The notes below the pieces were generated by a model. That model did not search any database. It was not told the origin of the DNA and was given only the letters and a program-made list of their open reading frames with translations. DNA of 64,000 nt from a virus (Duplodnaviria; Heunggongvirae; Uroviricota; Caudoviricetes): the IMG/VR virus record IMGVR_UViG_3300031707_004017; one strand, given 5' to 3'. Shown piece after piece: positions 6,901 to 58,505 of this stretch. Positions within the stretch are counted from its first letter, which is position 1, and each line of letters opens with the position of its first letter. The position numbers and the translations under genes were made by a program.

Positions 6901-8352
6901 AAAATTGTCTGTTGTAGTGTCTGATGATCCGCCACCAGAATCCTCGACTCCATCAACATATATAAAAAGTTTATCTGTTACAACATTTCGAACTCCTACC
7001 ACTAAATGCCAATTACCATCAACAATATTTGTTAGACCTAGAGCTTGAGAGGAATTTCCACTATTATCTTTAATTATAAATCTTGCTACATTAGTGTCTG
7101 TAACATCGAGTATATAATAAGGACCTGCTGATGCCCCTCTTCGCATTATTTCAGTATATCCAGTGCTACTTGTTTTTATCCAAGCAGAAAGAACAAAACT
7201 ATCCGATGACAAAAAAGAGATATTAGCGCCCATATCAACATAAGCCGACCCATTCAACGAAATGGCCCTATTGATCTTACCTAAGCCAAATGTAGTGCCG
7301 TAATTGGTACCATTCACTAAACCTAAAGCACCATTATAACTGTCCTGAAAATGCCAATTCTCCTTTGCTGATAAATCAGACCATACCGTTGTATCATTAG
7401 ATCTTGTGACTCCACCGTACTGGCAGTAAATGACTTTATTAGCAGCAGTACCTAGTGATAGGATTTGTACCCATGCCTCAACTTTACTCGTTCCAGGATT
7501 ATATAGAACTATCTCTCTCTTCAATTCAGTTACACCATCCGTATCAAAAAATCGAATATCCAGCCCTGTAGTTGTATCAACAACATGTGACCAGAATCCG
7601 GAAGGAATAGAAGAGCAGAGTTCATTGAACAAGTACGAAAAATTAGTAAGATCATCTCCAAAATGTAACAATATCTTTGTGTAAGAATCACTGGAATATT
7701 TAGATGTTGGAGGAATAAATCCTGATGTCCAACGAGCTATTCCTTTTGAAAATCTAAATTCATCAATATTACCATTAAAAGAACCTAGAGTACCAGTATT
7801 CATGTTCCCAATAGTTACAGGATAAGTAGAATCTAGAGCAAAATATCCTGTTAAGGTGACAGATGCTTGATAAATACCATCGACGTATAAAGTAAAGACA
7901 TCCCCATATCTTACACAGGCCACATGATGCCAAATATTATCATTAACATTGTTAATTGAACTAAGTGTGGTGTGTGAGGGATACGATTTATAATCTGGAA
8001 ACCAATACAATTTACTACTAGAAACATAAAGAAGATGAGCTATGTTACCTGGATTGCCATCATTATCTCCTTGATAAAACAACATGCCAAAACCAACTTG
8101 TGTTGTTTTAAACCACAAATCAATGGTATAATCGCCTGTACCCGTAGCAAAATCTGCATGATCTGGTGTTAATATATAAGTTCCAGAGACTCCATCAAAA
8201 ACACCAGAGGCAGGAGCAAATTCATAATCTCCTGTACTCAGCTTGGCATTACCAGCGGCAGTCCAAACTTTGCCTGATACGTCAATAAAGCTCGTGCTAT
8301 TATTAACGCTTTGTACTTTGGTTTTATCGATTGTAATAGGAAATCTGTACAT
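3913..8352 (-). CDS. giant structural protein (1479 aa) with three LamG/ConA-like lectin modules and two PKD domains
   Basis: PKD signatures WDWDFGDGSPHSTTQNPSHDYQNAGIYTI and WDWDFGDSTLHSTMQNPSHIYTALGAFTV; LamG-like modules ending DDVRIFKSSFLSDWIKTEYNNQNDP / DEARVFASALSADWIKTEYNNQNSP; internal duplication (see repeat feature). Confidence 0.85.
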   Translation of the reverse strand: MYRFPITIDKTKVQSVNNSTSFIDVSGKVWTAAGNAKLSTGDYEFAPASGVFDGVSGTYILTPDHADFATGTGDYTIDLWFKTTQVGFGMLFYQGDNDGNPGNIAHLLYVSSSKLYWFPDYKSYPSHTTLSSINNVNDNIWHHVACVRYGDVFTLYVDGIYQASVTLTGYFALDSTYPVTIGNMNTGTLGSFNGNIDEFRFSKGIARWTSGFIPPTSKYSSDSYTKILLHFGDDLTNFSYLFNELCSSIPSGFWSHVVDTTTGLDIRFFDTDGVTELKREIVLYNPGTSKVEAWVQILSLGTAANKVIYCQYGGVTRSNDTTVWSDLSAKENWHFQDSYNGALGLVNGTNYGTTFGLGKINRAISLNGSAYVDMGANISFLSSDSFVLSAWIKTSSTGYTEIMRRGASAGPYYILDVTDTNVARFIIKDNSGNSSQALGLTNIVDGNWHLVVGVRNVVTDKLFIYVDGVEDSGGGSSDTTTDNFTSFANNLNIGRNPFPAEYFTGFIDDVRIFKSSFLSDWIKTEYNNQNDPATFSLCSAEEDVTRIYKFPITIDKTKVQGTNSNFVYLFSEFCSSIPAGFWAHVIDTTGLDIRFFDTDSVTELKREIVLYNPGTSKVEAWVQIPSLGTAINKIIYCLYGGSTKANDYDLWDSLVPKGIYHLQSLSDSSTQNVSLTNAGASSTIGQIENGYNFNGSSYAYRTDTDDKQDITGSFTLSAWINLSSYGYATIIAKRQNGSGTHNYIFDVDPSGYIVLFNNGLSPSSLTSSVTVPTGLWSYVTAIYNGSTVKLYINGIERGSQSVTGTPIADSGPFGIGADYPGSWTDFFSGKIDEARVFASALSADWIKTEYNNQNSPVTFAVCGVEQIAAIAADFSAVPLTGDASLLVNFTDLSTGMPISWDWDFGDGSPHSTTQNPSHDYQNAGIYTIILIASNLTSTDIETKVDYITINMVADFSATPIIGPAPLTVNFADLSVGNPTSWDWDFGDSTLHSTMQNPSHIYTALGAFTVTLISSRGTTDTEIKSNYITTSIFQRTLNTLTSDTDSERQNYNTAVIVEPDGKRVVFYEKQLKSGLTNYSPITAFLTWDMPFTIHVPAGSGSINAISVSWSAVDVYATHDTYQLLYVSNTGTVTITDVWDSDLVKDVIILAFVYSGSSEITLLERWEKVGNYISVKSQTSPGVWDSKEYTLNVGEQPKAFIDVTGKIYLSYLKDSAVFVRIIDFSDPLTLSYLPHTIVSANMLQINMNPYPQSSLPVSLGSGYEGVVTAPQGVDLYPFAYYGVGYRKVLGVYQPFMYLPYLTGSYLSYINYPYYVEFFRYTGGSYVLVTSIAVYDLLADLSSLNRWFQWTYGTDTFYVGVRVNNKLINTPYTTLPANYGILKVFDPFELQTFPDPTHITDEIIERPTSVGLGSGHEGIISKTFEYETIRDYKTDNKDTGLSQGYQGIIEKTSEFETIRDYESDSKDTGLSTGYVGIITVSS
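5740..7660. repeat. intragenic tandem duplication (~1 kb unit x2) inside the 1479-aa gene
   Basis: DNA at ~7440-7630 and ~6480-6670 is near-identical (e.g. ...cccatgcctc.actttactcgttcc.ggatt.tata.gactatctctct.ttcaattcagt.aca...); protein repeats YLF.E.CSSIP.GFW.HV.DTTGLDIRFFDTD.VTELKREIVLYNPGTSKVEAWVQI at aa ~237 and ~572; FPITIDKTKVQ at aa 4 and 556. Confidence 0.8.
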
Positions 8353-8390
8353 ATTATTTTCAATGATTCGTTAGAAATCTTAACTAGAAT

Positions 8391-10178
8391 TCAATTTGTT
8401 ACAATGTCGCTAATATCATACGCATCGACATCAATACTGGTACCCGCATCAATGTATACATCTGTTACAAAATTTAAATTTACATCATATTTTGATATCT
8501 TTTTCCTATCTACATTATACGTTAACAAATCACCATTATAATCTTCTTTAAGCCATCTAACAACCTTTGATATTTTATTAGAAGCGCCAACACTTTCATA
8601 CGATGAATTAACTTTTATAATTCGTTGACCATTATTAAGATACAAATATCCGTTAGAATGATAAACCATTCCATAATATATTTGTGGTAATTCACCTATA
8701 ATTGATCTATTTATAAACATTGAAAAATTTGCTGACTCAGTGGTCTCATAAACATCTAAACCGGCACCCACAACTAATATTTTATTTACATCAAATCCTC
8801 TACAAATAGCAATCGGTTGTCCCTTTAAACCACCTATAGTGTGTAAATTATCACTTGTTATAATATTAACCAAATTGAAATCTAATTTCTGAATTCTAGT
8901 ATAATCGTTATTAAACACGCCAACAACATAAAGACAATCGCCTGCTCCAGAATCATGAATCATTATTCTATAAGGCCGACCAATTGTTGTAACAGTACTA
9001 TATTCAGACACGTATAGTAAACTCGAATTAACCAACTTAATAATACGACTATTCAACGAGTCACAAATATAAACATTATTTGAATTAACAGTAATACCTT
9101 GTGGAAATTTTAACATTGTATTATCCGAGCCTGCTTCGCCATACAATCCGAATTCAATACCCGTGTATATAGCGGGTATAACATTTGATTGCAACTGCTT
9201 TACGACGTGTCTCTTTGTTCGTTGTGCTACATATAGCATATTGACTGTTGTAGATCCCCAAACAGACAAAGTATCGCCACCCACCTCACCTGCCATTACA
9301 AAGGCAACACCATTATAACCCAATATTCTTGATATACCAAGAGCTTCAGGATAAGGTGCAGAACTAACAATAGCAAATGGATCCGTCGATGGGTCAAGAA
9401 GTGATATTGTCCAAGGTCCATACCTTGGGGAGGTTGCATACAATAAAGTGCCATCAAACCACATTTGATTCGAACTAATCGATCTATAATCAGTACCAGG
9501 AGCTTTATGCCCATTCGATCGATCTATAAGTCCTAAATTACCAGTTCCGGGATATCGTGAAATAAATAAATGGCCATAACCACCTCGTAATCCATTATTA
9601 GAAGAGGGATACGAACTTCCATTACTTCCTAAAGCTGGTGGAGGGCCATCTGATACCGATTGATAATATAAATATGATAAATTACCATAATAAAACGCAT
9701 TTATGGCATATGGCTGCGGTAAAAGATTGGGGGTGTTTCCTCTAACATCTATAGATCTACTTCCTCGGTAAGTAAAAGAAGATCCATCGAATGTTAGTAA
9801 ATATGCAGTTCCGGTTCCAGGTCCGCCACCACCAGAAACAGCGGATAGAAATAATATTCTGTCGCCAGGATTAGTAACTGCAAAATAGTTGGCACTACCA
9901 ACTACAGAGCGGGCAATCGACCCAACCTCTGCAAATAAAGACCCGTTGAATGTATACGCCTTGAAATATGATCCCTCAATACGGAAGAGGTAACTCCCAT
10001 TATAAAAAATTGTTGAACCACCCGGAACTAGATATTCTGCAACAAGATTCAGTGTAGAACCCGTCCACTGATAAGCATGCATACCTGTGCTATCATTAAT
10101 AATAAGATAACCTGAATTATCTATTGTTGCATTACCGAAAGGAATAGATGTTGTGCTATATAATTTTAAAAAGGCCAT
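8391..10178 (-). CDS. NHL-repeat beta-propeller protein (595 aa), receptor-binding/fibre paralog 1 with extra N-terminal domain
   Basis: NHL-like motif YICDSLNSRIIKL; internal YVAQRTKRHVVKQL matches N-termini of the two downstream paralogs; conserved C-terminal DVYIDAGTSIDVDAYDISDIV; SD GAGGA. Confidence 0.8.
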   Translation of the reverse strand: MAFLKLYSTTSIPFGNATIDNSGYLIINDSTGMHAYQWTGSTLNLVAEYLVPGGSTIFYNGSYLFRIEGSYFKAYTFNGSLFAEVGSIARSVVGSANYFAVTNPGDRILFLSAVSGGGGPGTGTAYLLTFDGSSFTYRGSRSIDVRGNTPNLLPQPYAINAFYYGNLSYLYYQSVSDGPPPALGSNGSSYPSSNNGLRGGYGHLFISRYPGTGNLGLIDRSNGHKAPGTDYRSISSNQMWFDGTLLYATSPRYGPWTISLLDPSTDPFAIVSSAPYPEALGISRILGYNGVAFVMAGEVGGDTLSVWGSTTVNMLYVAQRTKRHVVKQLQSNVIPAIYTGIEFGLYGEAGSDNTMLKFPQGITVNSNNVYICDSLNSRIIKLVNSSLLYVSEYSTVTTIGRPYRIMIHDSGAGDCLYVVGVFNNDYTRIQKLDFNLVNIITSDNLHTIGGLKGQPIAICRGFDVNKILVVGAGLDVYETTESANFSMFINRSIIGELPQIYYGMVYHSNGYLYLNNGQRIIKVNSSYESVGASNKISKVVRWLKEDYNGDLLTYNVDRKKISKYDVNLNFVTDVYIDAGTSIDVDAYDISDIVTN

Positions 10179-12656: not shown

Positions 12657-13169
12657 TTACAATAAACCTTCGTCCATTAGCCTGTTCATAAAAGCTTCTC
12701 TATTAGTATACGTTTGAATGTCACCATCTTTATCGACAGTGTACTCTTCAAGAACAGGTTCGCCATCTTTTTCATCATAATTTGTTTTAATAGTGATGTA
12801 ACCATCATCTGTCTTGACAGAATCTTCTGTCAAATATTTTTTTGTCGATTGAATAATTGGTACAATTTGAAGAGCTGGTCCCGTCATCACATCAATCACC
12901 TCATCGACGACTTGCGCAATTTTACATTCGTCATCATCAGATGATTTTTTCTTTTCTGGTTTATAATGAGGTTGCGGCGACTTTTTCAACTTACCGCCCG
13001 GTCCCCACTTTGCACCTGGTTTCTGCTTAGCTAGCCACCATGACAAGGCCCACGGGTTTGTAATATTCTTATGTTTTTTCATAGCACGTGTTGTCCCAGA
13101 CCAATTTTTGGGCGACACTGCTTCTTTTAATATCAAATCTGCAATTTTATTAATATTTGATCCTAACAT
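12657..13169 (-). CDS. hypothetical Lys-rich protein (170 aa)
   Basis: ORF track only. Confidence 0.55.
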   Translation of the reverse strand: MLGSNINKIADLILKEAVSPKNWSGTTRAMKKHKNITNPWALSWWLAKQKPGAKWGPGGKLKKSPQPHYKPEKKKSSDDDECKIAQVVDEVIDVMTGPALQIVPIIQSTKKYLTEDSVKTDDGYITIKTNYDEKDGEPVLEEYTVDKDGDIQTYTNREAFMNRLMDEGLL

Positions 13170-14017
13170 GTCACCTCCTCTTTATTCATTGTATGATGAG
13201 ATTTATGATAATTTCTAGCTTTTTCTATGTATTCACTTAAATCTTTTTCCGTGATTATTTTAAATGTTAAATTGTTTTGTCTACAATATTCTTGTGCAGC
13301 TAAAAATTTTGCTTGATTTTCTTTACTAGCTACTCTGCTTAATGGTTTAATTTCTTCTAAAACACTTCCTACTAAAATATCAGGATAATACCATCGATTT
13401 TGTTCATTTATTGTATATTTAATTCTAATGCTATGCCTTTTAGTATAACATTGCTTTAAATCATCTAATTGCATAAATCTAGCTAATTCGTAAGAACTAT
13501 CATAAAAATGTCCGTAATAACATCCTTGAAAAAATCCTGTATATGGTTTCCATGTGCCGTCAATAAAAGATTTGAATAACCCATCTGAAATGTGTTGTAT
13601 TCTTTCTTCGCTAAATTGTGGCTTTGCTTTTAAAGTCTCACTAATTTGTCTTTTTGTTTCTTCAGTGTGTTTTACACCAGGTCTTCCTGTTAACGTTTCA
13701 CTTATTCTTTGTCTATTTTTCTCGTCTGACATTCTTAATTTTGCAGCGCAAGACAAACTACAAGTTTTATCATCTCGTTTACTATAAGTTGAAAACCATT
13801 CTTTACACCATGGACATTGCTTTTTATGTAATATTCTTGTTCTTTGACTGTCACCTACTTTTTTATTTCGTTCTTCAGTATAAAGTTTCTTTTTATACTC
13901 TGGATCAGACATTCGTGAATTTGCACCGCAGGAATTGCTACAAAATTTACGTTTTCTATATCGCCACGTCAAAAATGGTTTATTGCACCATTGACAATTT
14001 ATTTGAATTTTACTCAT
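13163..14017 (-). CDS. triple zinc-ribbon protein with C-terminal PD-(D/E)XK nuclease-like motif
   Basis: Three repeats of CxWCxKxF...KFCSxSCxAxxRMSD; C-terminal YYPDILVGSVLEEIKP fits PD...(D/E)xK. Confidence 0.6.
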   Translation of the reverse strand: MSKIQINCQWCNKPFLTWRYRKRKFCSNSCGANSRMSDPEYKKKLYTEERNKKVGDSQRTRILHKKQCPWCKEWFSTYSKRDDKTCSLSCAAKLRMSDEKNRQRISETLTGRPGVKHTEETKRQISETLKAKPQFSEERIQHISDGLFKSFIDGTWKPYTGFFQGCYYGHFYDSSYELARFMQLDDLKQCYTKRHSIRIKYTINEQNRWYYPDILVGSVLEEIKPLSRVASKENQAKFLAAQEYCRQNNLTFKIITEKDLSEYIEKARNYHKSHHTMNKEEVTC

Positions 14018-21184: not shown

Positions 21185-21694
21185 TTATTGCAAATCATAC
21201 ACATATACATCTATACCGCTATCGTGTGAATGTGTCTCAATTAATGGTTCAATTTTATTCCAATCACCGCCAGCTAAACCGCAACCAATTCGTGGCATAT
21301 GAATCGTCAAACCTTTTGCCGTTGCAAATTTAAATGACTTAATTAAAGCTATATTTAGCATGTCGTATTGCAAATAAGTTTTTGTATTTAAATGCTGTTT
21401 GCGATAACCTTGCTGGGCGATCATATTTGCCACCCATATTTCTTTACCTTGTATTAAAGATACAGGTATAAATTGAACATTACCTAAAGCAAATACTTTA
21501 TCATAATTCTCTTGAACTATTCTATCAATCCTACCTTTTCGCCAATCTCGATAAGCTATTTCAGGATTTGTCCACTTATCAGATAATGCCAGCACAAATC
21601 CCGCACCCCAGGCGCCTTTATCGTTGCAAACGTGACATATAAGTGATTTATCTTTGACAGGTGTCGTCGCATCACCGACTAAATAATGTATCAT
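21185..21694 (-). CDS. macro-domain (ADP-ribose binding/hydrolase) protein, tentative
   Basis: LICHVCNDKGAWGAGFVLAL resembles macro VNAAN..GGGV segment; TIHMPRIGCGLAGGDW resembles IAFPxIGTGxxGG. Confidence 0.5.
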   Translation of the reverse strand: MIHYLVGDATTPVKDKSLICHVCNDKGAWGAGFVLALSDKWTNPEIAYRDWRKGRIDRIVQENYDKVFALGNVQFIPVSLIQGKEIWVANMIAQQGYRKQHLNTKTYLQYDMLNIALIKSFKFATAKGLTIHMPRIGCGLAGGDWNKIEPLIETHSHDSGIDVYVYDLQ

Positions 21695-21751
21695 AATTAT
21701 TCCTTTACAAAGAAAAAGCAGACATTAAAACAATGCCTGCTTTCCTTTGAT

Positions 21752-22564
21752 TTACTGAAAGAATGAATTGCTGGGTCCGATTTGAGTTTGACTTTTCCGT
21801 ATAATTGATTGACTTACGAGACCCATAGCTTTTCGAACTTCACTTGGCGAATTCTTCGCAGTCAACACGTTCGGAAAACCAATTAAACTAGCAATGGCTT
21901 CAAACTTTGCTTTGCGCCGCTGATCGTCATTTTGGTCATTATCAAAACCAACGTAAACCAAATAAAACATTTCTGATGTATGACAATCATCAGCCAATTT
22001 TTTGACCAAATCAGGCGCTTTATAATTCTGTGAATCATTGTCTTCACCGTCAGAAAAGGCCGCTATGATACACTTCGTCTGAATGCCGCCGTCCTTCAAT
22101 GTTTTAGCATAAGCCCTGATGCCTATTATAGCATCAACGACTGCATCGTAAAACCGTGTCGAATCACCTCTAGCCACATATTGGCTCCCGATTTTACCAA
22201 CGTCTGCTACCTTTTTGAAATCATAAAGAATTTTTTGAGCTGTTGAAAACGTTCTTGCACTAACAAGCATTGACCCTGCTTGTTTTGTCGCCTTCATTGC
22301 GTTGATGACAAGTTCATCATACGCTTCACGAACAACCATTTCATTAGATTTCATTGAAAAAGAATCATCCAAAAGAATCGATGATAATGTCACGCTATCT
22401 GTTTCAAGATCATCGACAGCCACACCTGTACAACCTAAGATGTTCGTATCATTTAAACCATTAATCATGATATTAGCAGCATCTGCGTTTATATCTCCGT
22501 CCTGCACTGCATTAGCAAACAAACTCTTGATACTGCCAACATTAACGGGATTCGTTGAACTCAT
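21752..22564 (-). CDS. vWA domain protein, TerY-like
   Basis: LLDDSFSM MIDAS motif, AAFSDGEDNDS; followed downstream by kinase and PP2C. Confidence 0.75.
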   Translation of the reverse strand: MSSTNPVNVGSIKSLFANAVQDGDINADAANIMINGLNDTNILGCTGVAVDDLETDSVTLSSILLDDSFSMKSNEMVVREAYDELVINAMKATKQAGSMLVSARTFSTAQKILYDFKKVADVGKIGSQYVARGDSTRFYDAVVDAIIGIRAYAKTLKDGGIQTKCIIAAFSDGEDNDSQNYKAPDLVKKLADDCHTSEMFYLVYVGFDNDQNDDQRRKAKFEAIASLIGFPNVLTAKNSPSEVRKAMGLVSQSIIRKSQTQIGPSNSFFQ

Positions 22565-22577
22565 GTCTATCTCCTTG

Positions 22578-23537
22578 TTATAGTTTTAAATCAGTGCTTT
22601 TTACGATGTTAATGCCAGACGATCTAAATTTATCAAACTCCGCTAGAGTTATAGCTTCAAAATCAATTGCCGGATGTTTAACTGAACTCATGCAATCTTC
22701 AAGAACATAAATCTTCTTAAGAATTGCTTTGTCAGTGTTTATAAAGAAATTATGAATTTGTATAATTGATGCAAGAACACAGTGACTTTTTGCTTCGCCG
22801 GCAATTATAACTTTATCATACTTCATAAGCATATTTAAAAAGTCAGTATTAAACCCGCCTTGCTTATGCGTAGGTATCTTGACTTCCGGACTCAAGATAC
22901 CATACATTTCTGTTTGAGGAATTTGACCCTTTTGTAAAAAATTCAACTGCGACTTTCTTGCGAATGCATGAAATGCTAAAACTTCAAACAGCGCCGGATC
23001 CATAGCTTGCCCAAGAGTGCCAAGGAGCGTATGGTACGTCCATATACAAAGCGGCTTATTTGCTTGCTGTAATAATTTTTCTGTGTAATCAATGCTAGCT
23101 ATTGGATCGATCGTCGGTCGAATTTCACCATCGTTAATACTCTTCGTTAATGCATGTCTATTTTTCGGTGTGTCCTTATACACTTCTGTAAAATATGCCG
23201 GTTTTTCACCTGTCTGTAATTGCCACCATGACCGAAAGAAAATCTGGAACAATAAATGCGAATCCAAAGATCCAAAAATCGCAGTTATTTTTTCCAAATT
23301 ATTAAAGATGAAATCAACGACTCGTCGAATGTCGTCCAATGATCCAGGCACAGATAATGAACCATTTTCGTGACAAAAATCAATTTGCATATCAATAAGT
23401 AGCAATGCCACTCTTGACCCCGCCTTGTCATTCGCAGATGCCGGTATTTGTAGCCCATCAGCCTCTTTCTCGACATCAGCAAGCCTCGGCAAATACAATG
23501 TTCCGACCTTATTTGAATCATAAAACGATGGCTTCAT
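22578..23537 (-). CDS. isochorismatase-family cysteine hydrolase, nicotinamidase (PncA)-like
   Basis: RVALLLIDMQIDFC (cf. PncA ..D.QNDFC) and downstream GEAKSHCVLAS putative nucleophile Cys; N-terminal extension of ~40 aa. Confidence 0.6.
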   Translation of the reverse strand: MKPSFYDSNKVGTLYLPRLADVEKEADGLQIPASANDKAGSRVALLLIDMQIDFCHENGSLSVPGSLDDIRRVVDFIFNNLEKITAIFGSLDSHLLFQIFFRSWWQLQTGEKPAYFTEVYKDTPKNRHALTKSINDGEIRPTIDPIASIDYTEKLLQQANKPLCIWTYHTLLGTLGQAMDPALFEVLAFHAFARKSQLNFLQKGQIPQTEMYGILSPEVKIPTHKQGGFNTDFLNMLMKYDKVIIAGEAKSHCVLASIIQIHNFFINTDKAILKKIYVLEDCMSSVKHPAIDFEAITLAEFDKFRSSGINIVKSTDLKL

Positions 23538-23547
23538 CTCGACCTCC

Positions 23548-25425
23548 TTATTTTGATTGTGTAAGTGTTAAATAGCAAATTTTATTTGTAGAAATTGCTA
23601 ATAAGCCTTGCTTATAAATCTGCAAACTTTGATCGCTATTAACAAATTCAGCCGTCGATGACTTTAATGACAATGAACCATGCCGCTCAATAACAATACC
23701 TGCATCAGTGGGATGAATTATAGCCGATCCAACTAACTGTTTACCATGAATATTTTTTAACAAATCAGAATTGATAGATTCTTCAGTTTTTTTCTCAAGT
23801 ATTTTTGCTTTATCGTTAATTATATGCCAGTGTGAATAAGTACGACCATTATATAAACTTTTTCGTAAAAGTATTACGTTGTCAATTGACATGCACACAT
23901 CAATATCAATGATTTGACCTTTAAGTTCATCCATTTCAATTTCATACCGACCAATCGCAGAAAATACGAAATATTTATGTTGATTAAATATCTGGAACAT
24001 ACCTAAACCAAAATCATTTTTGCCGACCTGCAACCACGTTTGATTTTCCATCGCAGCCGTGACTTCTTCTTCAATGACTTGCCCATTAGTATATTGTCCC
24101 TTCATAATCATATTAGTTGTTAATCGATACAAATAATTACTACTACAAGAAAACACTGGTTCATTATGAAAACTCAACGTGGTCAACTTTGCTATTAAAA
24201 CAACATTGCTGTCTTTTACATCCATAATAAGTAAATCACTATCTTGATTGATCACTAAACAAGACGGTAAAAAATAATCGTACTTAAATTGTGGTTCAAT
24301 CCCTTTCCACAAAAGAAATGACTGCTTAAATTTTTCAGTAATTGAAACGAACCTTGTCTCGCCATCCTCATAACTTATTATGATAATTTTATCATTGATA
24401 ACTTTTGAAAATAAAATTACGCCTTTAGTTTCGTATATCATAATGATATCACATTTTTCTCTATCTATATGTTTTGGTGATATAATACTAGTTAAATCTA
24501 CGACTTGTTGTGGCGCAGTTTTTTGACACTGTGGACATTTCGATCTTGTCTTAGAGAAATAAGTATTACAAGAAGCACATTTATTAAATGTCCCTATTAG
24601 TTCTTGCAAAGACTGCACCGGTAAATTGCTTCTCTCACCCTTACAAAAAATGTTCGAAAAATAATGCAACAAATCGTCGCTTAACGTTTCAGGATGCAAT
24701 GCTATTTTTGGATATACGACTTCTTTTTCTAAAACCCAAACTTTTTTCTGAGCTCGTCGTATCATAGTATTGAACGTCTTATGAGTCCCACCATAAGGAT
24801 GCACAAACAACAAGCTTTTAAAAAGCATGACAGCAAAAGCGTACCAATCAGACTCTATCGTAAAAGACGGCTTTCTTGTTAAATCTACACCGTATAATGT
24901 CGGATCAATAAATGAATCTGTGCCTACAAAACACGGATACCGACCAAATTGAAACGAATCCACATCGATGTAATAAACTGATGAATCATTTTCGACAAAT
25001 AATTTATTGACATCGTTCAAATCGCCGACAATGACATTACTACTATTAATAGCGTCAAGCAGCAATTTAGAGTTAGAAAAGATTTGTATTACGTCATTAG
25101 TCGTAATTTGATGTTGATTTCGATATTTAATATTAGATAAATCGATAAACGACACAGTCCTTGGTGCTATAGCCATCGCAAAACCATTAATTTTACCCGC
25201 TGTATCGGTCACGACATCTATCGGCGCTAAAACATTCGGCGGTAAACTAAAGCCGCACTTTAAAAAAGCTTGCAACTTTTGCGCTCGCTCAAGAGTTGGA
25301 TCATGATAAATTTTAAATGCAATATTGTTATTATATTTAACAACATTAGCCTCGCCACCACTGCCAAGCACATGTTTCGTATCAATGTCAATTATTTTGT
25401 TCTGGTAAACTATTCGCATTTTCAA
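23548..25425 (-). CDS. protein kinase-like protein with Zn-ribbon (625 aa)
   Basis: Gly-rich loop LGSGGEANVV, AFKIY lysine, VIVGDLNDVNKL catalytic-loop-like, IDVDSFQFG DFG-like; CASCNTYFSKTRSKCPQCQK zinc ribbon. Confidence 0.6.
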   Translation of the reverse strand: MKMRIVYQNKIIDIDTKHVLGSGGEANVVKYNNNIAFKIYHDPTLERAQKLQAFLKCGFSLPPNVLAPIDVVTDTAGKINGFAMAIAPRTVSFIDLSNIKYRNQHQITTNDVIQIFSNSKLLLDAINSSNVIVGDLNDVNKLFVENDSSVYYIDVDSFQFGRYPCFVGTDSFIDPTLYGVDLTRKPSFTIESDWYAFAVMLFKSLLFVHPYGGTHKTFNTMIRRAQKKVWVLEKEVVYPKIALHPETLSDDLLHYFSNIFCKGERSNLPVQSLQELIGTFNKCASCNTYFSKTRSKCPQCQKTAPQQVVDLTSIISPKHIDREKCDIIMIYETKGVILFSKVINDKIIIISYEDGETRFVSITEKFKQSFLLWKGIEPQFKYDYFLPSCLVINQDSDLLIMDVKDSNVVLIAKLTTLSFHNEPVFSCSSNYLYRLTTNMIMKGQYTNGQVIEEEVTAAMENQTWLQVGKNDFGLGMFQIFNQHKYFVFSAIGRYEIEMDELKGQIIDIDVCMSIDNVILLRKSLYNGRTYSHWHIINDKAKILEKKTEESINSDLLKNIHGKQLVGSAIIHPTDAGIVIERHGSLSLKSSTAEFVNSDQSLQIYKQGLLAISTNKICYLTLTQSK

Positions 25426-26200
25426 TCACCTTTTCAAAAACGATGCAAGATGCATCATCATAAAATATTTTTCTGTCTGACCAAACGTTAAATTTCCTCT
25501 GCAATCCGCGTTTCTTAGTCCCGTAAAGTTCGCTCGTTAATTGTCGCTCGACTAAAGGTATTAAACCATCAGAACCAATGGCAATCTTATTTACAACTTT
25601 TATATCATACATTGATATTTGTAAGCCTTGTAACTTTGTCGGTTGATTTACTAACGCTTGTCTTGGAACATTGTCATACATTAAATAATGCGGGCCACCG
25701 TCTTGATGAATTATTGTCGCATTGTCATCAATAATTATCACGCCATCTCCGCAATGACCAATAATAATATAATCGCTCAAAACAATACCGAAAATAAACG
25801 TCGTCAATAAATATTCATCGATAAATTTAATTTGGTCTTGAATGTCGTCAATTCGCAGACCACGTAATAAATCATTAATAAATTTATAGCTTGTTGGTTC
25901 AATGATTCCTTTAACGACATTACTAATGATCTGTTGAGACGTATTAGCTGTGAACGCATCAACGTCTTCTTTAAACGGTGAATAATAATCGTCCAACGCC
26001 CCTAAAGATAAATTATTAAGAATAAGATTACCAAATAAACACGCACCAACCTCAGTAAATTGTCCACTGCCACAACCGTCACAAATTATACCATAAACAT
26101 GTTGTTTATCTATTAATGTCGCACAAAAATCTTGTTTATTTGTTTTAAACAATACATGATCGCGACCAATTATCATAGCCTTGTTAACGTTCCACATCAT
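25388..26200 (-). CDS. PP2C-family Ser/Thr protein phosphatase
   Basis: ICDGCGSG, IIIGHCGDGVIII, IAIGSDGL metal-binding Asp motifs; overlaps kinase gene by 38 nt (translational coupling). Confidence 0.65.
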   Translation of the reverse strand: MMWNVNKAMIIGRDHVLFKTNKQDFCATLIDKQHVYGIICDGCGSGQFTEVGACLFGNLILNNLSLGALDDYYSPFKEDVDAFTANTSQQIISNVVKGIIEPTSYKFINDLLRGLRIDDIQDQIKFIDEYLLTTFIFGIVLSDYIIIGHCGDGVIIIDDNATIIHQDGGPHYLMYDNVPRQALVNQPTKLQGLQISMYDIKVVNKIAIGSDGLIPLVERQLTSELYGTKKRGLQRKFNVWSDRKIFYDDASCIVFEKVIENANSLPEQNN

Positions 26201-26862
26201 TTAATTATTTCTCCCGTTTTATACGACCAAAATAATAAATCTAGCTCATCAAAATCTAATTCGTATCGTTTTGCAAAATCTTTCATAATGAGTTCAACTT
26301 TGCAATATTCTTTTTTATTACATGGTTTTTGCACGTTACAACCTAATAAATTAAGCATCGAAATTATGTGCTTATCAAGAATCGCAAAGCCCTTGAACCC
26401 GATGTTTCTAAGAAAATGACTACTTTCTTTGTAACCAATACCACATAAAAATTTAGCAAGAAATTCGCGTAAAGCAAGACCATCGTATTGATCAAATATT
26501 TTTCGTACATCAAGATCACAATAACCTTTTAAAAAATGTCGTGTTCTAACAATGTAATTAGCCCTTGACCTCGGAAATCTATACACGCCTTTTAAGCACG
26601 TCGATATATCTTTTTCATTGCCTAAAAACAACGTGTCGTCATCTATAACACTAACAGCTTTCATCGCCATTTTAGCGCTAGCGTTAGCTGTCAAAATACA
26701 AAAGATTAATTCTTGAAATAATTGTTTAGATGAACCTTTACCTATAACTTGAAATTCATTCAATCGTTTTTGAATCGCAGATTCTACACTAACATAATAC
26801 TGCCTCAAGTCATTAACTGTAGCAATTGTCACGGCATTATCGACTTTAATAATTTCAATCAT
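26197..26862 (-). CDS. ogg: 8-oxoguanine DNA glycosylase/AP lyase, archaeal Ogg2-type (HhH-GPD)
   Basis: LFQELIFCILTANASAKMAMKA and GIGYKESSHFLRNIGFKGFAILDKHI (HhH with catalytic Lys and Asp). Confidence 0.75.
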   Translation of the reverse strand: MIEIIKVDNAVTIATVNDLRQYYVSVESAIQKRLNEFQVIGKGSSKQLFQELIFCILTANASAKMAMKAVSVIDDDTLFLGNEKDISTCLKGVYRFPRSRANYIVRTRHFLKGYCDLDVRKIFDQYDGLALREFLAKFLCGIGYKESSHFLRNIGFKGFAILDKHIISMLNLLGCNVQKPCNKKEYCKVELIMKDFAKRYELDFDELDLLFWSYKTGEIIK

Positions 26863-27743
26863 TTACTTATCGGCCAATGTCGTTTAAAATTTATTTTTTT
26901 AAACAGCGCTGTCCGTGAAATACTTATCGGCCAATGTCGTTTAAAATTTGCCTTTAAATATCGTTGAACAACCGGATGATCTTTTAAGCGATCTCGTTGT
27001 TCAGTTATAGCATCAATATTTGTTAAGTAATTATTTTCCGTCATAATCCAGCATTTTAATATTTTATCAACATCATCATAAGTCGGAGCGCCTAATTGAT
27101 CTAAATCGCTATTGCTTACTCCTAATCCGTCAGTTGGAACAGCTTCAATACATAATTTAAGAGATTCAATTTGTTTCTCGTCTAGCAACATATTTTTTAA
27201 TATAAATTTAGAAATTTCATAAACTTCAGTTTTCCAAAGATGTTGAATCATACCATAATCGCCCCAATCACCCATGATTGTACTAAATCCTAGTAAAAAC
27301 TCCGTATAATTATCCGTGCTAAGAACCATACCTTTATTTTGAGCCGCAAGATCATACAATTTAATCATTCGCATTCGAGCTTTCAAATTACCTAATCGAA
27401 TCTTAAAAGCTACATCACTATGATCAGCTGTATCATAGTCATCTACTATTATAGGAGCAATTTGACGATAAGTATGTGATAAATCAATTTCTTTAAAATC
27501 ATGGCAAAAAGCTACTCCTGTCAAAGCTGCCCGCTGTATTTCGACTTCTGAATTTGTCGCAATAGGTATGCTACGACCTATAAGCGAAATATGTAAACAA
27601 TCGCAAACTGGTCGTGCTAATGCTGCGCAAAGCGTGCTATCAATTCCGCCAGAAATACCGATAATAAGACTTTGAAGTTTATGCTCAATTATATAGTCTT
27701 CAAGTTCTTGCCGAATATTCTTGACAACATCTTTGCAATTCAT
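26859..27743 (-). CDS. nadE: NH3-dependent NAD+ synthetase
   Basis: PP-loop IGISGGIDSTLCAAL ~35 aa from N-terminus; length 294 aa. Confidence 0.85.
   Translation of the reverse strand: MNCKDVVKNIRQELEDYIIEHKLQSLIIGISGGIDSTLCAALARPVCDCLHISLIGRSIPIATNSEVEIQRAALTGVAFCHDFKEIDLSHTYRQIAPIIVDDYDTADHSDVAFKIRLGNLKARMRMIKLYDLAAQNKGMVLSTDNYTEFLLGFSTIMGDWGDYGMIQHLWKTEVYEISKFILKNMLLDEKQIESLKLCIEAVPTDGLGVSNSDLDQLGAPTYDDVDKILKCWIMTENNYLTNIDAITEQRDRLKDHPVVQRYLKANFKRHWPISISRTALFKKINFKRHWPISK
26864..26977. repeat. imperfect 57-bp tandem duplication (2 copies) at nadE 3' end / ogg start
   Basis: acttatcggccaatgtcgtttaaaattt at 26864-26891 and 26921-26948; encodes FKKINFKRHWPIS twice at NadE C-terminus. Confidence 0.7.
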
Positions 27744-27866
27744 AAAATCCTCCTATAAAGATAATTAATTAATCAATATGTTTTACGATGATTTGATCGT
27801 AATCACAATGATTCACAAAGTAAATAATTGTCTTATTATTTCTTAAATAAGTAATAGGAGATTGAA

Positions 27867-28613
27867 ATGTCGTTATATAACAATGCTAATGAATTATTAC
27901 ATGACGCTGTTGAAAAAGGCTTAATCAATCTTTTACAACCACGTGTAAAAATCGGTAACATAGAAATACAATTAAATAATAGCGTCATAAATGTATTGAA
28001 CCTTAATAAATGGATGGAATTCCTCAACTATGTGATTCAAAATTCTGATAATGAAGATGAGATAAACTATGCAACTCAGATATTAGAATCATTCAAGCAA
28101 CAATGTAACATTCAAACAGTCGAAAATGATAAATCATTAATTTCGACCGACGATGTTATAAAACTATCAACTGAACTTAATAATTGCAATACAGTCGATG
28201 ATATTTTTAAATTAATAGGTATCCAACCTCTTGTTAATCGTGTTCCGGAAAAGCTCTACAAGCGCATCGATGCCACAACAATCGCCAAAAGCGCAGAACT
28301 CAATGCAGTTGTACAAGCGGCCGTCAATAATAAAATACCGCTACATGTTGATAAAATATCACCACCATCGCTGACTATTCCAAATACTATTAAGTGGAAA
28401 CGACCTATAAAAATCGACAACAAATGTCGCTATTATGCTCATAATACATCATGGTACATTGAACGTCAAGATGCGTATAACCAATATGGTGGATTAAATT
28501 ATTACTACTCTCTATTTTCGCCCACATCAAAAGAGCGTGCTCGCTTTGACACTCTTAAAGATGCGAAGAAAAATTCTTTAATCGTCATTAAAAGTTTAGT
28601 TGATAATCGATAA
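27867..28613 (+). CDS. hypothetical protein (248 aa) carrying a GC-rich patch shared with gene at 48.6 kb
   Basis: SD GGAGA; segment NRVPEKLYKRIDATTIAKSAELNAVVQAAVNN shared with 48530..48883 product. Confidence 0.65.
   Translation: MSLYNNANELLHDAVEKGLINLLQPRVKIGNIEIQLNNSVINVLNLNKWMEFLNYVIQNSDNEDEINYATQILESFKQQCNIQTVENDKSLISTDDVIKLSTELNNCNTVDDIFKLIGIQPLVNRVPEKLYKRIDATTIAKSAELNAVVQAAVNNKIPLHVDKISPPSLTIPNTIKWKRPIKIDNKCRYYAHNTSWYIERQDAYNQYGGLNYYYSLFSPTSKERARFDTLKDAKKNSLIVIKSLVDNR
28238..28330. repeat. ~90-bp segment near-identical (inverted) to 48590..48680
   Basis: cgtgttccggaaaagctctacaagcgcatcgatgcc...atcgccaaaagcgcagaactcaatg present here and as reverse complement at ~48.6 kb. Confidence 0.8.
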
Positions 28614-28621
28614 TCTAGCAT

Positions 28622-28921
28622 TTGGAGGTACGTGTGTTTGAAGTGCAGAATAATATTAATTATAAAGTCTTCATTAACGCACAGAAAAAAGCAATTGAAG
28701 TGTCAAAATGGATAGAAGGTGAACGTATTAAATCTGATCCCGGCACGCGCTATATACTATTTTGGATACATGCATACGCAAAAGATTTTAAACAAGCATG
28801 GAACAGATCAAGATGCAAAAAATGTAAAAATGAATATTGCAGATATAAAAATGTTTCTAAATGTAACGATTTTTCACCTGATCCAGAACTACAACATGTT
28901 AACAAAGAAACTAATAATTGA
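28622..28921 (+). CDS. small Cys-rich protein (99 aa)
   Basis: RCKKCKNEYCRYKNVSKC; overlaps HPr start. Confidence 0.4.
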   Translation: MEVRVFEVQNNINYKVFINAQKKAIEVSKWIEGERIKSDPGTRYILFWIHAYAKDFKQAWNRSRCKKCKNEYCRYKNVSKCNDFSPDPELQHVNKETNN

Positions 28922-29165
28922 AAATGATCGAGGACTGCATGCTAGACCGTCTGCACTAATTGTTGAAAAAATATTGCCATTTAAATGTAATGTCAAAATC
29001 ACTTGCAACAAAGTCGAAGCAGATGCAAAAAGCGTATTGTCTTTATTATCATTAATTGCTCAAAAAGGATTTGAAGTTGAAATTGTCATTGATGGAGAAA
29101 ATGAAATAGAAGCAATGAAAGTAATGATTGATTTATTTCATAGCAAATTTAAAGAAGCCTACTAG
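28896..29165 (+). CDS. ptsH: phosphocarrier protein HPr (PTS)
   Basis: MLTKKLIIENDRGLHARPSALIV...ADAKSVLSLLSL: His15 in GLHARP and Ser46 in KS(V/I)L both at canonical positions; 89 aa; start chosen inside ORF 28719..29165 at in-frame Met 60. Confidence 0.85.
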   Translation: MLTKKLIIENDRGLHARPSALIVEKILPFKCNVKITCNKVEADAKSVLSLLSLIAQKGFEVEIVIDGENEIEAMKVMIDLFHSKFKEAY

Positions 29166-29688
29166 ATTTAAGTCTAATAAATAAAACTGACACAAGCGGA
29201 TCTTTCACTGTGGGTATTATATCACTTTCAAACCACATACACTTAGCTTTCTTTTCTAATTCTGATCCATCACCGGTCGCATTTTGCATTTCGAAATCTG
29301 TCAAATTTATTGAATACAAATAATAAACAGTATCAGATGATTTTGTCGCAAAACAAGTGCCAAGACTTAATAAATATTTAGATTGGACTTCGTATCCTGC
29401 TTCTTCTTTCAATTCTAAAATAGCAGTGTCTCTTGGATCGCCACCTTCATAACCACCAGTTATAGAACTTATTACTGGTTTAAATCCCCAACAAGGTGTC
29501 ACTTCATTTCGCAATAAATATTCTATTTTGTAATTTGAAAATCTATATGGCAATATTGAAATTATTTTACCATCACATCGCGTCTCATGAGAAAAAACAT
29601 AACCCTCAACCCCTTCTTCGGGCGCTACTAAATTTTTAAGTGATAACCATTTATTAAAAAATAATGTTTGGACATTCATAATCAACAA
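29149..29688 (-). CDS. Nudix-like hydrolase (diverged Nudix box)
   Basis: GGYEGGDPRDTAILELKEEAGYEV approximates Gx5Ex7REUxEExGU (R replaced by L). Confidence 0.5.
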   Translation of the reverse strand: MLIMNVQTLFFNKWLSLKNLVAPEEGVEGYVFSHETRCDGKIISILPYRFSNYKIEYLLRNEVTPCWGFKPVISSITGGYEGGDPRDTAILELKEEAGYEVQSKYLLSLGTCFATKSSDTVYYLYSINLTDFEMQNATGDGSELEKKAKCMWFESDIIPTVKDPLVSVLFIRLKSSRLL

Positions 29689-30014
29689 AAAGCCTCATCT
29701 AAATTATTAAGAAAAGCCTGCTCGTCTTTATAAATGCTAAGTACGCTTGTCAATCCGGTTAATTTAAATGTGTTTAAGATGTCTTCTTTTAACCCATAGA
29801 TACATATGTTTAATTTTGAATCTGCTTCAACTAAATAGCTAATCGCTGTACTGTCGACTGTGCTCACTTCAGACATGTCGAGTGCAATATTTGACCAACC
29901 TTCACCCATTAATTTCTTTATTCGTATTAATAAATGACTGATATTTGTCGCAAGTAACATGCCACTAACTTCTAATAGTATATACGTACTATTGTTACTT
30001 TCACGAATATCCAT
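29682..30014 (-). CDS. STAS-domain anti-sigma factor antagonist (SpoIIAA/RsbV-like)
   Basis: LDMSEVSTVDSTAISYL (cf. DLSGVSFMDSSGLGVL) and GLKEDILNTFKLTGLTSVLSIY. Confidence 0.7.
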   Translation of the reverse strand: MDIRESNNSTYILLEVSGMLLATNISHLLIRIKKLMGEGWSNIALDMSEVSTVDSTAISYLVEADSKLNICIYGLKEDILNTFKLTGLTSVLSIYKDEQAFLNNLDEAFC

Positions 30015-42652: not shown

Positions 42653-42904
42653 ATGAATGCGCGCCAGATCAAGAAACTCATGTTAAATGAACTGGACATT
42701 CCCAGACACAAGATCGAGTATGTAATCTCTCGTCCAGTCCTCGTCCAGGGTTTATGGGGTTGCTTGGCTGCATACGGCGTCGAACACGATCGAGAAAATC
42801 ATGAATTGCTGGTCGAAATCGTGCAAGACAAGTTAAATGAACCGGATATTGAAAGAGAGTGGAGTGAACTCGAATATGAAACGTTTGTAAAATGGGGGTC
42901 GTAA
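42653..42904 (+). CDS. hypothetical protein (start MNARQIKK, SD GGAGG)
   Basis: Internal Met with SD inside ORF 42584..42904. Confidence 0.45.
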   Translation: MNARQIKKLMLNELDIPRHKIEYVISRPVLVQGLWGCLAAYGVEHDRENHELLVEIVQDKLNEPDIEREWSELEYETFVKWGS

Positions 42905-57803: not shown

Positions 57804-57870
57804 CCTTTACGCGCGCGATATAATGGGGACATGAACAATTTCGTTCGTCAAGATCCTTTACGCGCGCGAT
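57804..57870. repeat. right boundary inverted repeat (two direct copies of CCTTTACGCGCGCGAT plus GAACAATTTCGTTCGTCAAGATCC)
   Basis: Reverse complement matches 39970..40020. Confidence 0.75.
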
Positions 57871-58013
57871 TTTAAAAGCCGTCAAGTTTTTACAAGCAGA
57901 CGAGTGAAAGTTACCAAGAAGCACCAGCCGCGGGTCGTGAGCGCGTGTGCCTCGGGCCGTGAGAAATTTGTCGAGGGCCTACATCTCGAATACCTACCAC
58001 ATTGCTGATTAAT

Positions 58014-58040
58014 TTCGGCAGTAGCGCGGACGTTGGCCAG
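58014..58040. repeat. left flanking direct repeat of the 11-bp array (ttcggcagtagcgcggacgttggccag)
   Basis: Matches 58478..58505 (ttcggcagtaacgcagacattgggccgg). Confidence 0.6.
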
Positions 58041-58370: not shown

Positions 58371-58477
58371 CCTTTACTTCATCATGCCACCTTAAGGAGC
58401 TGCTCGGTTACCTTGTACTGTTTCTGTATCCAGAAGGCTTTGAGCCGAGATTTGGCAATAATGCGCATGCCGATCAA

Positions 58478-58505
58478 CTTCGGCAGTAACGCAGACATTG
58501 GGCCG
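58478..58505. repeat. right flanking direct repeat of the array
   Basis: See 58014..58040; followed by degenerate units gagcggacgttagcc. Confidence 0.6.

Follow-up and report, generated by a model that had tools for sequence, protein, structure and literature searches.

A predicted nicotinamidase in a conserved cassette with a kinase, a PP2C phosphatase and a vWA protein, next to NAD+ and ADP-ribose genes of a probable huge phage

What a group of NAD+ and ADP-ribose genes might do together in a probable phage is the question raised by IMG/VR virus record IMGVR_UViG_3300031707_004017. We refer to the full 64,000-nucleotide (nt) stretch analyzed here as the window. An earlier reading made from the letters of the DNA alone (the sequence-only reading) had described positions 21185 to 29688, a span of 8.5 kb, as a set of four genes encoding a PncA-like hydrolase, the NAD+ synthetase NadE, a macrodomain (macro) protein and a Nudix hydrolase. 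All four genes were found in this interval, but four others had been overlooked, namely those for an Ogg-type DNA glycosylase, a PP2C-family phosphatase, a Ser/Thr protein kinase and a vWA protein (Table 1). The results below show that the gene for the PncA-like protein, a predicted nicotinamidase, is an integral member of a conserved four-gene cassette with the kinase, PP2C and vWA genes.

When the window proteins were searched with the profiles named in the sequence-only reading (NAD_synthase, Isochorismatase, Macro and NUDIX), NadE matched far above its Pfam cut-off and the Nudix protein exactly at its own, whereas the Isochorismatase match (25.8 bits) fell just under its cut-off of 27 and Macro gave none. 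Taken literally, part of the set failed these profile searches; more sensitive evidence rescued the PncA-like, macro and Nudix assignments. The NadE call, made with high confidence, was borne out by Pfam, TIGR00552, solved structures and the presence of the SGGIDS motif. Two calls of moderate confidence held despite Pfam: the PncA-like one through a family alignment, a match to yeast Pnc1, and AlphaFold and Foldseek analyses, and the macro one through matches to solved macrodomains and a PHROG family. Nudix was the weakest link: its fold, which is like that of ADP-ribose pyrophosphatases (ADPRases), and its conserved glutamates agree with the call, but a divergent block separates it from the other genes and it is kept near the cluster in one relative.

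The reading that we prefer, to which we give about an even chance, is that the phage recycles NAD+ through the deamidated branch, that the macro and Nudix proteins handle ADP-ribose, and that a TerY-P-like triad of kinase, PP2C and vWA protein gates the nicotinamidase.

The predicted nicotinamidase and its four-gene cassette

The predicted nicotinamidase has about 1,500 family members of about 310 amino acids (aa), labeled "nicotinamidase-related amidase" by several sources. With the NCBIfam equivalog PRK11609, it reached 17.5 bits against a cut-off of 174. A catalytic triad (D49, K203 and C253) and a metal site (D92, H94 and H169) were invariant in a 32-member alignment and in 100 of 100 complete sequences among the loci fetched for the census described below. 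The best solved match to a profile of the family was yeast Pnc1 (E value, 5.4e-7). In this alignment, D49 corresponded to D8, D92 to D51, H94 to H53, H169 to the His of WPvH, K203 to the Lys of KG, and C253 to the Cys of CV. The AlphaFold model of the window protein had a pLDDT of 94.5, and the Foldseek matches ranked 1 to 13 were all solved nicotinamidases, from six organisms (best E value, 6.8e-13), with other isochorismatase-like hydrolases ranking below. Together, these comparisons predict that the protein is a nicotinamidase with an intact active site, from a divergent long-form subfamily.

The protein shares the fold, the Asp-Lys-Cys triad and the Asp/His/His metal site, with the motifs aligned, with canonical nicotinamidases (yeast Pnc1 and the PncA proteins of M. 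tuberculosis and A. baumannii). However, it is about 100 aa longer and only 15 to 19% identical to them, it scores under the Pfam and NCBIfam cut-offs, and it has a vWA neighbor that looks obligate. Relative to canonical PncA, its N terminus is extended by about 40 aa, and about 70 aa are inserted between DxH and WxxH. In PncA and Pnc1, the metal site is known to bind the unsubstituted nitrogen of the pyridine ring, which argues for free nicotinamide as the probable substrate here, not nicotinamide mononucleotide (NMN) or NAD+. The identities RutB, YcaC, CSHase and biuret hydrolase were also considered and were rejected: these enzymes ranked below all nicotinamidases in Foldseek, and the Asp/His/His metal site, which to our knowledge they lack, is invariant in the present family.

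For a census of gene neighborhoods, an alignment of the nicotinamidase was used as bait, which was productive where NadE had failed: a search for related loci with NadE alone gave no viral relative. We fetched 80 bacterial and 79 viral loci (numbered with the prefix L), and their open reading frames (ORFs) were annotated with iterated hidden Markov models built from the window proteins. Dereplication at 90% identity left 100 loci or clusters, 32 of them viral and 68 bacterial. Homologues of the vWA, kinase and PP2C genes lay within 10 kb of the nicotinamidase gene in 25 of the 32 viral clusters (23 within ±7 genes). Among the 68 bacterial ones, 25 had the vWA gene and 11 had the full set of partners (nine within ±7 genes). 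Most of the bacterial loci were from Chloroflexota, and some were from Polyangiaceae, Desulfobacterales and Spirochaetales. Where present, the vWA gene was usually immediately downstream of the nicotinamidase gene, in bacteria and viruses alike. Three gene orders were found: PP2C, kinase, nicotinamidase, vWA, as in the window; nicotinamidase, vWA, PP2C, kinase; and vWA, PP2C, kinase, nicotinamidase. The linkage held down to about 30% nicotinamidase identity and across the family tree, and the catalytic motifs were conserved in all four proteins. On this comparative evidence, the co-location exceeds chance, because relatives keep the same neighbors.

A separate observation concerns Ardenticatenaceae/Chloroflexota loci L030, L040, L059 and L077. 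Here, two ORFs precede the cassette (PP2C, kinase, nicotinamidase, vWA) by about 5 kb, one of 1,460 to 1,680 aa and a small one of 164 to 223 aa on the opposite strand. These ORFs could be an extra conserved partner or mere synteny among relatives.

The partners of the nicotinamidase were then compared with their homologues. PP2C matched Pfam PP2C_2 at 44.9 bits, against a cut-off of 24 (E value, 1.3e-11), and its metal-binding aspartates D41, D152, D211 and D248/D249 were invariant in 37 homologues. The Pfam Pkinase match of the kinase was weak and under the cut-off (E value, 6.7e-4); its G-loop, K38, D135, N140 and D154 were conserved in 42 homologues. A zinc ribbon, CASC-x10-CPQC, occupies residues 283 to 300, directly after the kinase domain, and the corresponding pattern CxxC-x10-CxxC was present in 18 of the 42 homologues. 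No fold was recognized in the C-terminal region of the kinase, which spans about 320 aa. The vWA protein of the window had no Pfam match, and its orthologue in L002, a 330-kb contig, matched Pfam VWA at the cut-off. The MIDAS residues (D66-x-S68-x-S70, T136 and D172) were conserved across 51 homologues. At its C terminus, the protein has an invariant Ser-rich motif, LVSxS..xxS....FF, ending in FF, and the invariant serines of this tail are candidate phospho-acceptors.

A vWA protein with a MIDAS, a PP2C phosphatase and a kinase with a C-terminal zinc ribbon, encoded together, make up the architecture of the TerY-P triad, which consists of the vWA protein TerY, a PP2C and a zinc-ribbon kinase (Anantharaman et al. 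2012, as summarized in PMC11090510; a defense variant is that of Gao et al. 2020). By architecture, the cassette resembles this triad in its three protein types, their tight linkage and their mobility between genomes. It differs from TerY-P in its conserved fourth member, the nicotinamidase, usually encoded between the kinase and vWA genes or ahead of the vWA gene, and in that about half of the cassette kinases are without the zinc ribbon.

TerY-P-like modules are reported as stand-alone antiphage systems in the account given by PMC11090510, which cites Gao et al. 2020. This agrees with an alternative in which the cassette is a self-contained conflict or signaling system of the TerY-P type, with the nicotinamidase as its effector and with NadE, Nudix and macro as independent accessories. 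For example, nicotinamide might be destroyed upon infection, so that competing phages could not rebuild NAD+ by nicotinamide-dependent routes; carried by a phage, such a system would provide superinfection exclusion. The cassette, or the nicotinamidase-vWA pair, is indeed found without NAD genes nearby in chromosomes of Chloroflexota, Polyangiaceae, Desulfobacterales and Spirochaetales, and many viral contigs of 45 to 85 kb carry the cassette without NAD genes (one cluster, represented by L090, comprises 45 loci). Moreover, the phage pathways NARP1 and NARP2 both require nicotinamide (PMC13464706). However, the PADLOC defense models matched no cassette protein, and Pfam scans revealed no obvious defense genes around L005 and L006, two bacterial neighborhoods distinct from the 11 full-cassette loci. 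In addition, the cassette of huge phages repeatedly abuts genes for PncB, NadE, macro or PARP in varied arrangements, for which chance is hard to invoke. We consider a self-contained conflict system rather unlikely.

Links to NAD+ and ADP-ribose genes

Among the 25 cassette-bearing viral clusters, 12 had a gene for PncB (5 clusters), NadE (7), macro (5) or PARP (4) within 10 kb. In L002, the order is PncB, NadE, PP2C, kinase, a 94-aa ORF, nicotinamidase, vWA, macro; its PncB gene (NAPRTase E value, 1e-46) is directly upstream of that for NadE. The nicotinamidase, vWA, PP2C, kinase, PncB and NadE genes are contiguous in L148, with a Nudix gene upstream. In L146, PARP, one further gene, macro, nicotinamidase and vWA are followed by PP2C, kinase, PncB and a 572-aa NadE, with a few short ORFs interspersed, and in L143 PncB is directly upstream of the nicotinamidase gene. 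The L146 PARP gene (positions 7108 to 8511), two genes upstream of that for macro, encodes WGR, PARP regulatory and PARP catalytic domains (E value, 7.5e-35). PARP-like proteins are encoded within 10 kb of the cassette also in L145 (411 to 1814), L130 (1099 to 2307) and L132 (301 to 1146). L002, L148 and L146 reinforce the NAD+/ADP-ribose theme of the sequence-only reading. The cassette also occurs in bacteria without NAD genes nearby.

In the window, a Pfam scan of 81 nonoverlapping ORFs of at least 70 aa and one overlapping 148-aa ORF found no PncB, NadD or other NAD synthesis family, and tblastn found no PncB either. The earlier statement that the set is incomplete, without PncB or NadD, is therefore true within the window. 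It does not extend to the flank: contig L166, which is 99.7 to 99.9% identical to the last 10.6 kb of the window and extends 9.9 kb further, has, about 9.4 kb beyond the end of the window, a gene for a 388-aa NAPRTase (PncB) on the same strand. Positions 1 to 4357 of L166 (about 5.6 to 9.9 kb past the right end, on the window's minus strand) hold the PncB gene, an IS605 OrfB transposase-like gene and a gene for a cpYpsA (SLOG) protein; SLOG proteins have been linked to NAD+/ADP-ribose systems. Of the L166 PncB, the C-terminal half was readable; it is 43% identical to the L002 PncB and 58 to 67% identical to PncB proteins of bacteria, including several from proteobacteria, a similarity that may hint at the host. 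By these assignments, the phage population of the window is predicted to encode the nicotinamidase, PncB and NadE, with NadD alone unaccounted for.

NadE matched Pfam NAD_synthase over the whole model (122.7 bits; cut-off, 21), TIGR00552 (112.8 bits; cut-off, 63.65), PHROG 11189 and PHROG "NAD synthetase" families, and solved NH3-dependent NadE structures with E values down to 7e-16. The PP-loop SGGIDS is at residues 31 to 36. According to Pfam and the length of the protein, it has the synthetase domain only, and the glutaminase (CN-hydrolase) domain is absent. The adjoining Ogg protein matched Pfam Ogg-HhH (E value, 8.5e-50) and NCBIfam PRK01229 (189.6 bits; cut-off, 183). The slot upstream of PP2C holds NadE and Ogg in the window, Ogg only in L001, PncB and NadE in L002, and, in L003, Ogg followed by a 268-aa ORF of no assigned function that immediately precedes PP2C, with PncB at a distance of about 10 kb. 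Two copies of a perfect 29-nt direct repeat, 57 nt apart, duplicate the peptide FKRHWPIS in the C-terminal tail of NadE, outside the NAD_synthase domain (Pfam covers residues 7 to 272). This repeat may be a recombination scar of shuffling in the slot.

The macro protein matched no Pfam family at an E value of ≤0.01, the Macro model included. Its best solved match was 5e3b ("Macrodomain protein"; E value, 6e-35), followed by the structural-genomics homologues 2afc (2.6e-32) and 2fg1 (3.5e-32), and weaker matches were to the ALC1 macro domain (6e-8) and TARG1/OARD1. It also matched PHROG 335 (7.6e-28), and a weak DarG-like similarity was its only resemblance to a PADLOC defense model. It aligns over its full length with 5e3b and with BT1257 (PDB 2fg1) and shares their GDAT and PRIGCGLAGG motifs; unlike them, it is phage encoded and lies beside the nicotinamidase cassette. 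Adjacency of the macro gene to the cassette was also seen in L001, L002, L146 and L157. PDB 5e3b is SCO6735 of Streptomyces coelicolor, reported as a protein ADP-ribosyl hydrolase linked to DNA damage, and "ALC1-like" is the label of the class to which the window macrodomain would belong.

The Ogg, PARP and macro genes bear on a further possibility, that the phage runs an ADP-ribosylation and DNA damage circuit, as opposed to evading immunity. Ogg would make base excision intermediates, a PARP-like or other transferase encoded elsewhere would mark proteins or DNA, and the macro protein would erase the marks. Nicotinamide is a product inhibitor of ADP-ribosyltransferases; the nicotinamidase would remove it, NadE would restore NAD+, and the kinase, phosphatase and vWA protein would be a damage-signaling switch. 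The Ogg gene is indeed upstream of PP2C in three loci (directly adjacent in the window and L001, with the 268-aa ORF between them in L003), the PARP of L146 has WGR and regulatory domains and homologues in L145, L130 and L132, and the closest solved macrodomain, 5e3b, is the one reported as linked to DNA damage. An operon of Deinococcus with vWA, kinase, FHA and PP2C genes has likewise been tied to DNA damage signaling (bioRxiv 10.64898/2026.01.23.701218). On the other hand, scans of the window revealed neither a PARP nor another ADP-ribosyltransferase, and L002 and most other cassette loci are without Ogg. Product inhibition by nicotinamide, too, is known from eukaryotic and yeast systems, not from the present one. 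Such a circuit is in our judgment unlikely.

The Nudix protein scored 21.1 bits with Pfam NUDIX, exactly the cut-off. In its family of 134 proteins of about 180 aa, E92, E95, E96 and G98 of the Nudix box are invariant; the box reads ...LELKEEAGY, its arginine is variable in the family and is Leu here, and the loop is one residue shorter. Two genomic contexts of the family, which seems largely restricted to phages and prophages, were looked up, a prophage-like region and a 678-kb contig. A structural model (pLDDT, 95) had NUDT5, ADPRases and nucleoside-diphosphate-sugar hydrolases as its top 50 Foldseek matches (TM score up to 0.78), the best being human NUDT5 and bacterial and mycobacterial ADP-ribose pyrophosphatases. 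With NUDT5, the ADPRases of E. coli and M. tuberculosis, and NudK, it has in common a two-part fold with an N-terminal beta-sheet extension and the Nudix box glutamates, but it is only 12 to 18% identical to them, in addition to the Leu and the shortened box. The modeled fold thus suggests the ADPRase-like branch, which does not by itself fix the substrate. An orthologue that is 65% identical is encoded in the same block in L002.

Layout of the locus and other features of the window

On the minus strand, the genes follow the order NadE, Ogg, PP2C, kinase with zinc ribbon, nicotinamidase, vWA, macro (Table 1). From NadE to macro, they overlap by 4 nt or are separated by 10 to 57 nt, and the PP2C and kinase genes overlap by 38 nt if the TTG start listed for the kinase is used. 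They probably form one tightly packed leftward operon. This structure is judged from gene spacing, because scans for consensus promoters and terminators did no better than shuffles. The promoter scan showed no enrichment over shuffled sequence in the divergent intergenic region either; from gene layout and sequence, this region is nonetheless a likely site of divergent promoters. The Nudix gene is on the same strand, 1.4 kb upstream of the operon, beyond a divergently transcribed block of two genes without assigned function and one for an HPr-like protein.

Table 1. Features of the interval and its gene boundaries in window coordinates
Feature	Position	Strand	Remarks
Macrodomain protein, type of PDB 5e3b	21185..21694	-	169 aa
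vWA protein, intact MIDAS	21752..22564	-	270 aa; cassette member
Predicted long-form nicotinamidase (PncA-like cysteine hydrolase)	22578..23537	-	319 aa; cassette member
Ser/Thr protein kinase with zinc ribbon	23548..25425	-	625 aa; cassette member
PP2C-family Ser/Thr phosphatase	25388..26200	-	Cassette member
Ogg-type 8-oxoguanine DNA glycosylase/lyase	26197..26862	-	Overlaps NadE stop by 4 nt
NH3-dependent NAD+ synthetase NadE	26859..27743	-	294 aa; first gene of the probable leftward operon
Perfect 29-nt direct repeat	26864-26892 and 26921-26949		Junction of NadE 3' end and Ogg start
Intergenic region	27744..27866		123 nt; between leftward NadE and rightward 248-aa gene
ADPRase-like Nudix hydrolase	29149..29688	-	Likely ATG start at 29679, giving 176 aa

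The HPr-family phosphocarrier domain (28719 to 29165, plus strand; Pfam E value, 1.5e-21) has a His15-type GLHARPS motif, and a Ser46-type KS motif was seen by eye. A STAS domain protein (29682 to 30014, minus strand; Pfam E value, 4e-11) is encoded next to the Nudix gene. HPr and STAS are further phospho-signaling parts within the same 9 kb as the kinase and PP2C. The HPr gene is kept in L001 and L002, and the STAS gene is not. PDB sequence searches with conserved neighbors of unassigned function (322, 244 and 248 aa) gave no match, and none of 50,697 phage records matched the 9-kb interval by megablast. Rfam (at gathering thresholds) and tRNA scans gave no hit anywhere in the window.

The closest relatives are IMG/VR contigs of 73 to 416 kb. 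When the GenBank phages were searched with the nicotinamidase protein, there were only four matches, all in unannotated records; three are "uncultured phage" genomes of 462 to 595 kb, and the fourth is a 6.5-kb phage fragment from human feces (43% identity). The ORFs of the window are dense and mostly of no assigned function, with homing endonuclease genes and a phiEco32-type amidoligase module among them. The window probably belongs to a huge phage, although the window alone does not prove it. Structural-looking genes and a radical-SAM gene are present in a stretch of about 6 kb past its left end.

Several other features lie outside the interval. The region from 57000 to 59100 (about 2 kb) has no ORF of more than 57 aa and a local GC skew of +0.28. 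At 58036 to 58364, there are about 30 tandem copies of an 11-nt unit, GCCAGATATT(A/G) (Tandem Repeats Finder score, 504), and a 34-nt direct repeat with 82% identity flanks this array (58003 to 58036 and 58468 to 58501). At the array, the alignment with L166 is interrupted, with overlapping segments, a sign that L166 may have another copy number. The tandem copies could form an origin/iteron array or serve to bend the DNA. A class II glutamine amidotransferase (45580 to 46503), a phiEco32-like COOH-NH2 ligase (49436 to 50695) and a GGACT (gamma-glutamyl cyclotransferase-like) protein encoded elsewhere in the window resemble an amidoligase or peptide modification module, unrelated to NadE. A 377-aa protein (42892 to 44025, plus strand) is an unusual fusion of an N-terminal DnaJ (J) domain (Pfam E value, 1.7e-13) with a C-terminal nucleotidyltransferase region like that of ATP-dependent DNA ligases (Pfam E value, 1.6e-5; PHROG 114, 1.4e-11). 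Finally, a 284-aa protein (13163 to 14017, minus strand) combines a TnsA-like endonuclease domain at its N terminus with a weak NUMOD3 motif; its gene, which lies among NHL-repeat and LamG/PKD (tail-fiber-like) genes, is probably an inserted homing endonuclease gene.

A proposed route of NAD+ recycling

Gene identities, active-site conservation and recurrent linkage come from the comparisons above. For the direction of flux, regulation by the triad and any role against host immunity, we infer the steps from the known roles of the enzyme families. NAD+-consuming reactions, either host NADase defenses or ADP-ribosyltransferases such as the PARPs of related phages, would release nicotinamide, which the long-form nicotinamidase would convert to nicotinate. 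The phage PncB, encoded about 45 kb away, would turn nicotinate into nicotinate mononucleotide (NaMN), the host NadD would turn NaMN into nicotinate adenine dinucleotide (NaAD), and the phage NadE would complete the route from NaAD to NAD+. The macrodomain would remove or degrade ADP-ribose adducts, and free ADP-ribose or a related nucleoside-diphosphate sugar would be the substrate cleaved by the Nudix enzyme. The triad would gate the activity of the nicotinamidase or its partners, the likely means being phosphorylation, with the serines of the vWA tail as candidate acceptors, and metal-dependent vWA binding.

Several findings weigh against this reading. The PncA-like and macro proteins fail the Pfam cut-offs. 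NadE and Ogg sit in a variable slot rather than in a fixed pathway operon: the closest relative, L001, is without NadE, and L002 is without Ogg. The Nudix gene is kept near the cluster only in L002 among the relatives. PncB is about 45 kb from NadE, and neither the window nor about 16 kb of flanking sequence yielded a NadD gene. None of the 11 bacterial cassettes has PncB, NadE, macro or PARP nearby, and the bacterial cassette is often reduced to nicotinamidase and vWA, which argues for a self-contained function. In PADLOC 2.0.0, in which the presence of a TerY-P model is unconfirmed, there was no match at an E value of ≤0.01 for vWA, PP2C or the nicotinamidase, and the kinase had a subthreshold match to PD-T4-6 only (E value, 0.0032, with no stretch passing). 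PADLOC thus identifies none of the triad, and we therefore call it TerY-P-like, not a member of TerY-P. Lastly, no virion hallmark gene came up in the window, either in Pfam scans or when ten large proteins were compared with PHROG, so that the word "phage" rests on the IMG/VR relatives and the huge-phage matches.

Jumbo phages with pncB, nadD, nadE and pncA, or Preiss-Handler genes, have already been described (Microbiome 2024, PMC11662467). In that work, 174 of 668 jumbo phages had complete salvage or Preiss-Handler sets, which the authors read as metabolic support. The present genes could similarly be ordinary auxiliary metabolic genes, serving to increase NAD+ for a large burst and unconnected with immunity or ADP-ribosylation; the genes for the kinase, phosphatase and vWA protein would then be unrelated passengers. 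However, passengers are ruled out by the conservation of the cassette, which extends over three gene orders and to about 30% identity, and the recurrent macro and PARP neighbors point to ADP-ribose chemistry, not to bulk supply alone. We consider this explanation very unlikely. The jumbo phages of PMC11662467 are like the present locus in being large uncultured genomes with pncB, nadE and pncA, often clustered with NAD+ consumers such as PARP. They differ in having pncB-nadD-nadE or nadR-nadM clusters, and in term searches of that article we found no kinase, PP2C or vWA partner mentioned. Of the complete PncB, NadD and NadE set, NadE is here in the window and PncB in a near-identical contig some 45 kb off, NadD was not seen in the window or its flanks of about 16 kb, and the nicotinamidase lies within a signaling cassette.

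Rebuilding of NAD+ counters NAD+-depleting defenses, as described for NARP1 to NARP3 (bioRxiv 10.1101/2024.02.11.579819; PMC13464706). NARP1 (Adps and Namat), NARP2 (Nampt and Nmnat) and NARP3 (PnuC and NadR) are phage enzymes that rebuild NAD+ from its precursors or from products of its breakdown and were shown to defeat such defenses. None of their component families was found in the window: the Pfam scan of the 81 ORFs gave no NAPRTase/NAMPT-type, PRPP synthetase, nucleotidyltransferase or PnuC family. Compared with these, the present route would run through nicotinate (the deamidated, Preiss-Handler branch) and would rely on the host NadD. A role against NAD+-depleting immunity is plausible, and an ADP-ribosylation/DNA damage circuit or a simple metabolic boost would fit the data equally well.

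A survey of viral NAD+-ADP-ribose systems (PMC9503650) covers NadV, NadM and NadR, and the terms nicotinamidase, PncA, NadE and PP2C do not occur in it. In the full-text literature, with the original TerY-P paper known second-hand, we found no paper on a nicotinamidase together with PP2C, vWA or TerY. NAD+ salvage by jumbo phages is thus already known; a nicotinamidase coupled to a TerY-P-like triad seems not to have been described, and in huge phages the connection of this cassette with PncB, NadE, macro and PARP looks like a new arrangement. A broader proposal, possible but decidedly more tentative than the recycling route, is that nicotinamidase, vWA, PP2C and kinase form a phosphorylation-gated nicotinamide-clearing module of bacteria and huge phages that has not been described before. 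Phages would have wired it to PARP, macro, PncB and NadE for a self-contained ADP-ribosylation/NAD+ cycle or for the defeat of NAD+-depleting immunity. In bacteria, it could be a defense of the TerY-P type that starves phage NAD+ reconstitution of nicotinamide.

Much of the contest between phages and bacterial immunity centers on NAD+, and none of the three demonstrated phage routes that rebuild it goes through the deamidated (nicotinate) branch. The locus shows this branch in a probable huge phage, with the predicted entry enzyme genetically locked to a kinase/phosphatase/vWA switch. The link gives TerY-P-like triads a concrete and easily assayed enzymatic partner, and it suggests that regulation of nicotinamide itself may be part of the conflict between phages and hosts. 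Should the cassette have a regulatory role, it would provide a rare case of a phage auxiliary metabolic enzyme under posttranslational control.

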